Positions 30,719 through 63,988 are shown, counted from the first letter of the stretch. The stretch: 64,000 nucleotides of DNA from Stegostoma tigrinum (GCF_030684315.1 NC_081360.1:44153424-44217423); one strand, 5' to 3'. Translations and numbers: made by a program. The notes: generated from the sequence alone by a model not told the origin.

Positions 30719-31000
30719 AGCCACCATCGTTCCTTAAGAAGCTACAACCAACATTGCTGTTGAAACAAGGTGATTCAGCACACTTGAAGTGCCAAGTGAA
30801 AGGGTCACCTGAAATCAATGTTACCTGGTACAAGAACAATAAGGTTCTCCATTCTTCAGAAAAATTTGAGATATCATTTGTTGATTCTACAACTGTTCTT
30901 GAAATTAATAATCTAAATGTAGAAGATAGCGGGGATTATGTGTGTGAAGCACAAAATGAAGCTGGTACTGATACTTGCAGTTCTGTCGTCACAATCAAAG
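30719..31000 (+). CDS. ttn: titin tandem Ig exon, super-repeat 1 position A
   Basis: AG/GT, phase 1-1, 282 nt, EPPSFLKKLQP... Confidence 0.95.
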
Positions 31001-31123
31001 GTGTGTATGATGTTGGTGCTGGCTTTATATCAGGCAACACCTTTGTTACTTTCTTCTTCTACCTTTTACAGTCAAAATTATCAGAACTTAATTTTAGCCT
31101 GAGATTTTTGTGTTCCTTTGTAG

Positions 31124-31402
31124 AGCCTCCCTCTTTTATCAAAGCATTTGAACCAACTGAAGTGGTAAAAGGATTTGGTTGCACTCTTGAATGTGAGCTG
31201 TCTGGCACAGCTCCATTTGAAGTCCTCTGGCATAAAGACAGAAAGCCAATTCGCACCAGCAGAAAGTACAAGATGGTTTCCCAAGATGCTCATGTTTCAC
31301 TCCATGTTAGCTTCTTTGAGTCCTCAGATGTTGGTGATTATCAATGCACTGTTTCAAATGAATTAGGGAAATGTGTCTGTGCTGCAACAGTAAAGTTGAA
31401 AG
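31124..31402 (+). CDS. ttn: titin tandem Ig exon, 1B
   Basis: AG/GT, 279 nt, EPPSFIKAFEP... Confidence 0.95.
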
Positions 31403-31534
31403 GTTAGTAATGCTTTCAAAAAGTAAGAGAACTATGTTCATAATTACAGTCTTGGACAGATCTTTAAGTATTAACAAAGATCATTTATTGGACGAACCGT
31501 AAGATGCTTATTCTGTATGTTCACTTTAAATTAG

Positions 31535-31813
31535 AACCACCATCATTTGTGAAGAAGATTGAAAATACTACTGCACTTCTCGGAAGCTCAGCTGTATTTC
31601 AGTGCAGCATCAAAGGCTCACCTCCCATCACTTTAACTTGGCTGAAAGATAAAGATATTGTCACAGAGAGTAATAATGTCAAAATGACTTACGAGAATAA
31701 TATCAGTACTCTTCAAATTGCTGCTGTTGAAATGAACAATGGTGGAAAGTACACATGTATGGCAGAAAATGAAGCAGGAAGTCAAAAATGTTTGGCAACA
31801 TTAGTTGTGAAAG
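31535..31813 (+). CDS. ttn: titin tandem Ig exon, 1C
   Basis: AG/GT, 279 nt, EPPSFVKKIEN... Confidence 0.95.
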
Positions 31814-31921
31814 GTTAGTTTGAGAATATGTTGGCACATTGCATGCAATATTCTTATTTTGTATCACAATGACGAGCTCTGAGTTTTGTTAATGGTAACC
31901 AACCATTTCATTTTGCCACAG

Positions 31922-32200
31922 AGCCTGCAAATATCCTAGAGAAAGCAGAACCAATTAGTGTGACTGCAGGGGACCCAGCAACTTTGGAATTCACGGTAGC
32001 TGGTACACCAGAACTAAAAATTAAATGGTTCAGGAATGGCAAAGAACTGATATCCAGTAGAAAATATAAAATGACCTTTTCAAACAACGTCGCCAGTCTA
32101 AGGATTATTTCTGCAGAAAGTGAGGATAGTGGTGAATACTCCTTTGAGGTCAAAAATGATGTGGGAAGTTGCAGTTGCAAAACATTTATTAATGTACTGG
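31922..32200 (+). CDS. ttn: titin tandem Ig exon, 1D
   Basis: AG/GT, 279 nt, EPANILEKAEP... Confidence 0.95.
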
Positions 32201-32303
32201 GTTAGTATGTCTAATTTTATTCTCCCCTTGCTCATTGTAACGTTAAGGGTAATTTTAATTTTATTTTGGTAACCTTACTGATTTGTTGTTCTGTCTTGGA
32301 CAG

Positions 32304-32591
32304 ATCGTATGATTGCACCCTCCTTCACTAAAAAGTTACGAAAGATGACCAGCATCTTGGGTGCTACTTTTCACATGGAATGCAAATTTTCTGGTTCTGT
32401 GCCAGTCAGCGTTTATTGGTATAAAGATGATAAAGAGTTAACAGCCAGTGATAAATACAGAATACTTTGTCAAGACAACACAGCCACTTTGACAGTTGAT
32501 CAGTTAGAGATTGCAGATGGTGGAACTTACTACTGCAAAGTTACTAATCCAGCAGGAAGTGATGAATGCAGTGGAGTCTTAAGTATAAAAG
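32304..32591 (+). CDS. ttn: titin tandem Ig exon, 1E
   Basis: AG/GT, 288 nt, DRMIAPSFTKKL... Confidence 0.95.
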
Positions 32592-33386
32592 GTTTGAACA
32601 AATACTTGAATTTTACCTCTGCACAATATTTTGTCTCTTGCTATTTCAATTTGCATTCAAGGTGCATTCTTCGTTGATAATTCATTAAAGTTTGGCCAAC
32701 TATTTTGTTGCATATGTTTGAAATTTATTCTGATGATTTGATGTGCAGTTATAAGAAGTGCTCAAGTGTTAACTTACACACGTTGGCATTTCTAAGATTC
32801 TTGGGGCTTTTTTTGCTGCTGTTCTCTCTTGAAGTTGTTGGTTTCTTATCAAAACGTAATTTCATGACATTTTTGCACTTTGTCCAAATGTCCATACCTT
32901 ATGTATAAAGCTCAGCAAAGAATGTTGATGGGATGCTCACTACAGAAATTGTTTTTGTAGAGCCACATCTTTTCTTTGCTAAATTCCCATGCACACACAT
33001 TTATACCATGAGGTTGTGGACAAGAGCTTTATGTAATTTTGCCTTGCTAATGATGATGCTCAGATCGATGGCAATTAAATAATGGTTACTATGACTATGA
33101 ACTGATAATTCAACACAAATTGGGAATTAAACCTTTTTTGTTTCTGGCGTCTACTTGTTTACTGAGCAATTATGGGAGCCCATTCAATGTCTGAGACGTA
33201 ATTGCTGGAATGCTTTGAGTCTTCTGATCTCAATTTAGTTACCAGATAGGACCCGAGCATTATACTCCAACATTAGTCAATGCAAATTGAAATGGAAGAA
33301 AGAAATTATGTGAATGTTTACTTGTTCTGAACTTATATTCATTCATGATGCATAATTCTTATGCTTTATGTCTGAATGTCTTTTAG

Positions 33387-61320: not shown

Positions 61321-61437
61321 AATACCTACGGTAGATACAAAAAAAATCTATAGCCAGCTCCGTCCAGAAGAATTGACTGCAATTAGAAAATCTATTGCAT
61401 AGTGCTCCTGATGCAAATGATCTACTTATTCCCACAG

Positions 61438-61716
61438 AACCTGCGAATGTCAAAGATAAAACTGAGCCACTCACTGTGACTGCAGGAAACCCAGCAATTT
61501 TGGAGTGTACTGTAGCCGGTACACCAGATTTAAGTGTTTCATGGTTCAAAAATGAAAAGCAACTGGAATCAGGTGGAAAGTATAAAATGAGTTTTGCAAA
61601 TAAAGTGGCAAGTCTAAAAATTCAGTCCGTTGAAATGGATGACACTGCTGATTATACTTTCAAAGTCCAGAATGAGTTTGGAGCCGACAGCTGCAGTATT
61701 TCTTTGACAGTGTTAG
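61438..61716 (+). CDS. ttn: titin tandem Ig exon, 7D
   Basis: AG/GT, 279 nt, EPANVKDKTEP... Confidence 0.95.
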
Positions 61717-61840
61717 GTCAGTGATTAGTTTGTGTTGATGGTCTTTAATTTCCTTTTTTACGTTAAGTAAAAAATGTCAGAAAATTAAAAATAGTGGACA
61801 TATTTTTTATTGACTTCTGTTTTACTCTTGCACTGGACAG

Positions 61841-62128
61841 AACAAATAATTGCTCCATTGTTCACAAGAAAATTAAAGGAAACCAGCAGTACTTTAGGAT
61901 CTTTTGTACAAATGGAGTGTAAAATTGCTGGTTCTATTCCGATGGACATCTCTTGGTATAAAGATGGCAATGAAATATCAGCCAGTAACAAATACAAGAT
62001 GTTATTTCAAGAAAACATGCTGTCTTTGGAAGTCTTTGAGTTAGACGTTTCAGATGGTGGAATATACTCTTGTAGAGCAGCAAATTCAGCAGGAAAGGAT
62101 GAATGCAGTGCTTTCCTAAGTATAAAAG
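61841..62128 (+). CDS. ttn: titin tandem Ig exon, 7E
   Basis: AG/GT, 288 nt, EQIIAPLFTRKL... Confidence 0.95.
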
Positions 62129-62383
62129 GTGTGAACATTGTCTTGTTATATTTTCTTCCCATCATGAATGTTAATTTCTTTACCCAAGCAGTTTGTTTTC
62201 TTTACAGCACTAGTCAAGTAACTAAACCTACACATCAAATACCATTATCTTTGATTTCTTAATTTATTGATTTTTGAAGAACATGTTAGCATTTTGCTAT
62301 AACATTGTCTTCAACCTACTCATGTCTTATAGTTTGTCTATACATGAGTTAATTAAATGTGTTTCTTCCCATGTAAATTTTAG

Positions 62384-62662
62384 AGCCTCCAAGCTTTGTT
62401 GAAAAAATAACATCACGGGATGTTGTACTTGGTTCTACTGTACAGTTTAGGAGTGTTTTGAAAGGAACCACACCATTATCTACAAAATGGCTCAAAGGAG
62501 ACAGGGAATTGATGCATGGTGTGGCATATTCCATTTGGAGTGAAGGCTCAACATATTTTCTAGAGTTGGTCTCAGCTAAAATATCTGATGCGGGTAGTTA
62601 CACCTGCCAAGTGAGAAACGATGTTGGTACAGTGGCCTGTTCTGCAGACTTGTTTGTGAAAG
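62384..62662 (+). CDS. ttn: titin tandem Ig exon, 7F
   Basis: AG/GT, 279 nt, EPPSFVEKITS... Confidence 0.95.
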
Positions 62663-63308
62663 GTGTGCATTTTTGTATATTGTTTTACAGTTTTTATAAT
62701 TCTGTTTCACATAAAATTGTTTTGCAAGCCTCGCTTGGTGAAAATTTCAGCACCATCAGCTGCAGTGGTATGATTTTACATTGCCAGCTATGGAGAGGGA
62801 GCATGCCAATTATCCAGCATCTAGTATCCAGACCAGTAAATCTGAGCTAAGAATCGAACTTGATGTCCCCGATTTTGACACTCAGCAGTTTCCTCTAAAG
62901 TGGACTGTATGCTGATAGTCACTGTTAGGTGAAGCATTGCGGAGTGGTGGAGAATTTGTTCTCTGTTCAAGGCAATGTAAAAAATGCCCCTTAATTCAAA
63001 TTGGTTTGTATGATAAAACAATAATGATGACAATTTTAAGATAGTCTAGACTTCTCCATCCCCAAAGAATTAAGTTGGCTATTTTTCATAGAGGCAGCAA
63101 TAAGAAATGCTGATAGCATGTGGAAAAGGAAATTATATTTTCTTTTCCATTCACAGACCTAGAGTTAAGTATTAATCAGTTGCATCAAGCTTGTAAATTT
63201 TGGGTGTAAATGCATTGTTGATAATTATTTGTATTTGACTGTTAGTTTGAATTGCTTTTTGGTTATCTTTTAAATTTATACTGACATTTATGACATTTTG
63301 ACTTCTAG

Positions 63309-63590
63309 AACCTCCTAGCTTCATTAAGAAGCTAAATCTGTCCACAATAATAAAGAAAGGAGACACAGCACGTTTTGAGTGCATTATAACTGGCACACCA
63401 AAAATGAAAGTTACTTGGTACAAAGGTGGTCATGAGCTTCTAGCCAGCGACAAATGTGTGATGTCGTTTGATGGTTCTGTGGCAGTTCTTGAGATTATTA
63501 ATGTTAGTTTGGATGACAGTACATGCTACATCTGTGAAGCAAGGAATGAAGCTGGTAGTGACAGCAGCACCACTGAGGTTGAAGTTAAAG
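63309..63590 (+). CDS. ttn: titin tandem Ig exon, 8A
   Basis: AG/GT, 282 nt, EPPSFIKKLNL... (identical to 6A by eye). Confidence 0.95.
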
Positions 63591-63709
63591 GTCTGTAATA
63601 TTGTCTTTGCATTTTGGCAGCATAGTGCATGTTTTAACTTACTTGAGCAAAGCTTCTATTGGTTTCTACAGTTTGGTTGATTGTAGACTTTGATGTGATT
63701 ACTTTATAG

Positions 63710-63988
63710 AACCTCCCAGTTTTAGGCGGAAACTTCAGTCTGCTGAGGTAATAAGAAACAGTGGTGTCACCCTTGAATGTGAGGTGGCTGGGACAGCTCC
63801 CTTTAAAGTTATGTGGTACAAAGACAATAAACAGATTCGATCCAGTGAAAAATATAAGATGGTCACTGAGAACTATTCAATTAGTCTTCATATGTTGAAG
63901 ATTGGTCCTTCATTTGTGGGTGAATATAAATGCACAGTCACTAATGACGTGGGCAGCTGCTCCTGCAGTTGTGGTGTCAGCTTGAAAG
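63710..63988 (+). CDS. ttn: titin tandem Ig exon, 8B
   Basis: AG/GT, 279 nt, EPPSFRRKLQSAEVIR... Confidence 0.95.

Follow-up and report, generated by a model that had tools for sequence, protein, structure and literature searches.

An array of eight six-Ig super-repeats in the titin gene of Stegostoma tigrinum, with a hybrid Ig exon and a likely twelve-exon duplication

The middle tandem-Ig segment of titin contains super-repeats of six or ten immunoglobulin (Ig) domains, and their numbers differ between vertebrates. In the account of Hanashima et al. 2025 (PMC12241362), the whale shark (Rhincodon typus) has eight six-Ig repeats and one ten-Ig repeat, the elephant shark (Callorhinchus milii) six and one, zebrafish three and one, and human three and three. 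PMC9529554 confirms the known I-band super-repeats. The six-Ig expansion in cartilaginous fishes is thus already published, in kind and in number (PMC12241362). By polymerase chain reaction, done for the elephant shark only, heart skips i28-i69, the larger part of the segment, and skeletal muscle skips i36-41, a single copy (PMC12241362). A question left open in PMC12241362 is how multi-exon titin blocks duplicate; judged from the present sequence, exons of the same position mispaired more probably than transposons acted. We analyzed a 64,000-nucleotide (nt) window of the Stegostoma tigrinum genome (NC_081360.1:44153424-44217423), on the + strand of the titin gene; positions below count from its first letter, and all features lie on the + strand.

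The locus is the middle tandem-Ig segment of shark titin, with eight six-Ig super-repeats and one ten-Ig super-repeat. A large Ig-unique-Ig exon (21286-25248) lies upstream. Three N-terminal middle-Ig domains (26185..28336), the i27-i29 equivalents if numbered by analogy with PMC12241362, are encoded by one single-Ig exon and one two-Ig exon. The array starts at 30719 and continues past the window end, as an earlier note made from the sequence alone had stated; its figure of at least 7 1/3 copies becomes exactly eight when the 200 kb downstream of the window are scanned with a profile built from the first 20 exons. Exons C8-F8, a single ten-Ig repeat and two C-terminal Ig exons occupy 64149-73528 in continued window numbering. 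Further downstream lie four N2A-like Ig, the PEVK exons, distal Ig and Ig with A-band spacing. With segment names given by position, the array lies between N2B and N2A/PEVK, where the middle tandem-Ig segment of titin is located, and the total is 3+48+10+2 = 63 domains.

All 44 exons at 30719-63988 are bounded by AG and GT, begin and end in phase 1 and are free of stop codons, and every copy follows the length cycle 282-279-279-279-288-279 nt. The earlier note's picture of intact single-Ig exons in a strict cycle was confirmed for 44/44, in splice ends, phase and open frame. Exons E1, E5 and E7 have an earlier GT at 279 nt; their end was set at 288, since the Ig profile match runs up to a GT there. 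Each phase-1 exon encodes one I-set Ig domain (44/44 in the window, 60/60 in the curated table). We named the exons A to F by position and numbered them by copy. Copies 1 to 3 (A1-F1, A2-F2 and A3-F3) lie at 30719..33665, 33881..38985 and 41014..44222, followed by copy 4 (A4-F4, 44428..48401), copy 5 (A5-F5, 49640..54718), copy 6 (A6-F6, 55365..57991), copy 7 (A7-F7, 58243..62662) and exons A8 and B8 of copy 8 (63309..63988).

Domains of one position class share on average 57% of their amino acids, those of different classes 32%. The best match of all 48 six-type exons falls in their own class, and 44 of the 48 separate completely. Judged by these identities, clustering by position A-F is far above chance, and the position-specific signatures of the earlier note hold. 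The tree comprised 115 domains, 60 from this gene and 55 from seven database fragments; a sterlet fragment, partial domains and human domains were left out. Classes B-F each fall on one side of a starred branch, with one change each. Class A requires two changes, with the long-branched domain Gx placed inside it, a position flagged as unsure. Bx and Cx of the ten-Ig repeat join bird domains and are separate from B1-B8 and C1-C8. In the titin structure 3B43, which covers rabbit I65-I70, domain 4 is the best match of exon A7, and domain 5 is the best match of B1. Together, the position classes and the 3B43 matches bear out the identification of the unit as the six-Ig super-repeat of titin.

Domains of types G-J occur once, after copy 8, and none of the 48 six-type exons belongs to them. 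The order of a ten-Ig repeat, A-F then G-J, is thus absent from the array. An origin of copies 4-8 from ten-domain repeats, which the earlier note had raised against its own claim, is rejected on the same count of types (0/48), obtained from a tree without human domains.

Two deviations from the Ig consensus were seen in otherwise intact exons. In D4 (45671-45949) and D6 (56632-56910), and only in these two of the 44 domains, a cysteine stands in place of the core Ig tryptophan, which may affect domain stability. The ray ortholog (P0026) carries the same cysteine, so this substitution is old and has been retained. C2 (34710-34988) lacks the conserved Tyr of the D-x-G-x-Y-x-C motif (HAGKILC), and the exon is otherwise intact.

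A second periodicity, of 12 exons, is superimposed on copies 4-8. Eleven exon pairs lying 12 positions apart, from C4/C6 to A6/A8, are mutual best matches with 84-100% nt identity, while older same-position copies outside the B4-B7 group are 56-73% identical. Five of these pairs are 97-100% alike and the six others 84-92%. C4-F4 pair with C6-F6, copy 5 is the paralog of copy 7, and A6 is identical to A8. This pairing is real, and exon B6 (55766..56044) is of mixed ancestry. Its nt 1-37 are identical to B8; over nt 38-279 its identity is 76-79% with B4/B5/B7, compared with 66% for B8. As a whole, B6 joins B4/B5/B7 in the tree (support 100/96). Over 12 residues, the B8 orthologs share the N-terminus of B8 (ray 91%, smooth-hound 75%). 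Since these orthologs start as B8 does, this end is native to B8, and B6 acquired it from the B8 lineage. Protein searches, limited to sequences of at most 2000 residues, returned no B6-type hybrid domain, which with 3 hits among 49 candidates is weak evidence.

Copies 4-8 likely hold one 12-exon tandem duplication whose junction lies within a position-B exon. The putative first block starts within B4, with the 3' part of that exon, and runs through nt 37 of B6 (44831..55802; its left edge is set by symmetry with the right). The putative second block takes up the rest of B6 and runs through nt 37 of B8 (55803..63746). An elephant shark fragment carries, in order, domains of F5/7 type, A8 type and B8-F8 types at 64-76%. 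This is the order that a six-copy ancestor predicts.

The two blocks share a 993-base-pair (bp) tract (54810..55802 and 62754..63746) with 0/993 differences, introns included. The tract takes in the greater part of the F-A intron, all of exon A and of the A-B intron, and the first 37 nt of exon B, where the match ends. The paired exons differ at 0/282 to 47/288 positions (chi-square 148, 10 degrees of freedom), and the synonymous divergence (dS) of the pairs, in order along the block, is 0.27, 0.05, 0.43, 0.02, 0.48, 0.32, 0.20, 0.14, 0.04, 0.02 and 0. The F5/F7 intron differs at 1/646 positions and the A6/A8 intron at 0/119; the remaining paired introns are 71-82% identical or cannot be aligned over most of their length. 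Because the tract includes intron, selection on the protein cannot explain its identity.

We compared the window with short-read contigs from organism A (the same species, possibly including the assembled sample) and organism B (a relative), with three bisulfite runs left out. The comparison covered 44001-56500 and thus the first tract copy only. In run X3 of organism A, the contig at 54429-55802 has a depth of 43, against 14-22 for the seven other listed pieces. In run X5 of organism B, the contig at 54811-55802 has a depth of 28, against 12-14 for seven others. The X5 tract contig differs from the window by 55 substitutions in 998 bases (about 5.5%) and 8 gaps, and it ends at the same base, 55802. 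Single-depth contigs of X5 (12-14) match both C4 and C6 and are 3-8% different from the window. Paralog letters in the contigs are those of B7 over B5 (21/21 listed sites) and those of D6 over D4 (8/8 listed sites), and X5 carries the B7 letters over B5 at all 21. The X5 contigs on both C4 and C6, together with these B7 letters, show that organism B shares the duplication, which is therefore older than the split of A and B. Without exchange, about 55 differences would be expected in the tract, and zero has a binomial probability of 4e-25. Within each species the paralogs are closer to one another than to their orthologs, the pattern of concerted evolution, as seen in one clear run per species. 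Gene conversion between the duplicate blocks after the species split is thus likely.

We consider it probable that the segment grew by unequal crossing-over between position-matched exons, the last event being a 12-exon step from six to eight copies, and that the blocks have been converted in patches since. The six-copy ancestor would correspond to copies 1, 2, 3, 4, 5 and 8. Exon B4 would have mispaired with exon B8, and a crossover near nt 37 would have doubled the whole stretch from one to the other, with a hybrid B exon as a by-product. Conversion would then have homogenized both blocks in patches. Mispairing requires a similarity that only same-position exons have, and every exon is phase 1, so such events would add multiples of six and keep frame and order. 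The earlier note had the array expanding strictly in whole super-repeat units; growth in multiples of six agrees with this, but the latest event spans 12 exons and breaks within exon B, not at an A/F edge. To the more specific proposal, that the 6-to-8 step is a mapped exon-to-exon crossover making a hybrid Ig and that two or more shark species each homogenized the blocks on their own, as far as one shared breakpoint, we give slightly better than even confidence.

Several observations weigh against a single crossover followed by conversion. Beyond nt 37, B4 and B6 are only 76% alike (dS 0.96), and B6 is at least as close to B5/B7 (79%), so that later reshuffling among the B exons has to be assumed and the left block edge is not pinned. 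Smooth-hound domains group with B7 (95/81) and C7 (98/51) but fall outside the D, E and F pairs, which bears on the date of the duplication. In run X10, the tract depth is 16.6 and that of other pieces 7-19; in run X1, the contig is mixed (mostly tract), with a depth of 13.9 vs 6-9. Contigs drop rare variants, and the double depth in organism B means near-identity, not exact identity. Recurrent unequal crossover within the tract is indistinguishable from conversion in these data. Finally, B4-B7 do not sort as a single event predicts. This last point and the very uneven divergence of the paired exons would also fit at least two duplications of different ages, in which case the tract would stem not from conversion but from a recent re-duplication or crossover. 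Along the block, however, young pairs are interspersed with old ones, which is hard to obtain from nested duplications, and the tract is homogeneous in two species that are 5.5% apart there. We regard such a history as quite unlikely.

It is highly improbable that copies 6-7 are a false duplication, in which a second haplotype or a wrongly joined piece was assembled in tandem. The identity of the 993-bp tract and of the five closest exon pairs would be expected from such an error, but the six other pairs are too divergent, and intron lengths differ, for example 1224 vs 156 nt. Four runs of organism A contain 91-93% of the sampled words of 52001-62000 (the 24 runs listed include no RNA library, which says nothing on expression), copy-specific contigs have single depth and the shared tract double depth, and the whale shark has the same count (PMC12241362). 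Haplotypic duplication was rejected, as neither uniform near-identity including the introns nor halved depth was found. False duplication was the other objection foreseen in the earlier note; exon pairs that differ by 0-16%, differing introns and contigs that contain both copies speak against it, and both blocks are real. Duplication driven by transposons at the block ends, as proposed in PMC12241362, would dispense with exon mispairing. High-copy repeat fragments are present in several block introns (depth 10^2 to 10^6), and PMC12241362 points to an association of LINE-1 with the PEVK triplication in human. However, the shared identity stops within exon B (55802/63746), the flanking 119-nt and 177-nt introns contain no repeat, and the long intron insertions are not common to both blocks, so they came or went after the duplication. 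A transposon origin is therefore unlikely. The high-copy fragments in the introns lie at about 46090-46500, 50500-51600 and 52820-52950, reach a summed depth of up to 10^6 and are unshared between the blocks.

The whale shark segment (w27-w89) has the same 3 + eight six-Ig + one ten-Ig + 2 = 63 domains, with one exon per domain, and no architectural difference from this gene (PMC12241362). The elephant shark shares the expansion of the six-type unit and the one ten-Ig repeat, but its six copies amount to 51 domains, 12 fewer than here, which is the size of the duplicated block (PMC12241362). Human I27-I79 has the same position classes arranged as three six-Ig and three ten-Ig repeats, in total 53 domains (PMC12241362); in mammals the segment was lengthened through the ten-Ig unit instead of the six-Ig unit. 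The net difference is +10 domains vs human, +12 vs elephant shark and +30 vs zebrafish (33). Compared with human, this gene has 30 more six-type and 20 fewer ten-type domains. The at least ~26 additional Ig domains of the earlier note thus shrink to a net ten (63 vs 53), since the two extra ten-Ig repeats of human had been overlooked. The closest named proteins, found under the same size limit as above, come from smooth-hound (77-91%), rays (63-84%) and elephant shark (64-76%). The protein searches returned titin fragments only, from ray, smooth-hound, elephant shark, bony fish and birds, and these are too short for full copy counts. A profile search of 50% representatives gave 2/150 proteins with at least five domains close to the array, neither of them shark-like.

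Tandem Ig segments straighten at low force, and more included domains give a longer slack length. An Ig domain measures about 4.5 nm, hence about 45 nm for ten domains. Much of the stiffness of titin depends on PEVK length and splicing, and the longer and more compliant spring of the earlier note is a prediction. If all copies are spliced in, skeletal titin would have ten more middle-Ig domains than full-length human titin, and the low-force part of the spring would be longer.

The expansion itself confirms the 2025 report; what is added here, a modest mechanistic gain, is a likely 12-exon event with a mapped junction and a tract that points to conversion. If correct, it would provide a transposon-free rule for titin growth in whole super-repeats, and exchange in the 1-kb identical tract could still be changing the copy number, both from one shark species to another and inside a species. 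As A6 and A8 illustrate, identical titin domains can go back to an old duplication and have been kept alike since, a point to consider when repeats are dated and when titin genes are assembled or mapped. A literature search by title and abstract start, with subscription journals mostly uncovered, gave no paper on conversion or crossover in titin Ig super-repeats. The words 'conversion', 'recombination' and 'crossing' are absent from the main text of PMC12241362, and its Fig. 4 tree may already show the pairing of copies 4-7. Near-identical domains lie 12 positions apart and neighbouring domains are 19-43% identical, a spacing that agrees with the view that similarity between adjacent domains is selected against (PMC12241362).

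The exon triplication in the PEVK region of human TTN is likewise a multi-exon tandem duplication with near-identical copies in a giant sarcomeric gene. It is young (about 1 and 3 million years; PMC12241362), whereas the shark block is old (dS up to 0.48) and identical only in patches. The nebulin triplicate region is also a multi-exon tandem duplication with near-identical copies (PMC9109913). In the PEVK region of the shark gene (chromosome about 44286150-44301870) we noted a tandem array with a period of about 4.58 kb, 97.9% identical over 11 kb. An incomplete exon scan showed at least 12 near-identical 66-nt PEVK exons in and around it. The array resembles the human PEVK triplication, and an assembly error is possible.

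Upstream of the segment, at 7697-16390, two very long Ig-bearing frames are parted by a likely 111-nt GT-AG intron (12771-12881). From their position we take these frames to be Novex-3, the human counterpart of which is a single exon. Within the long Novex-3-like frame, 10620-11631 is a coding tandem repeat of 48 nt (16 residues) in 21 copies, with higher-order periods of 144 and 288 nt.

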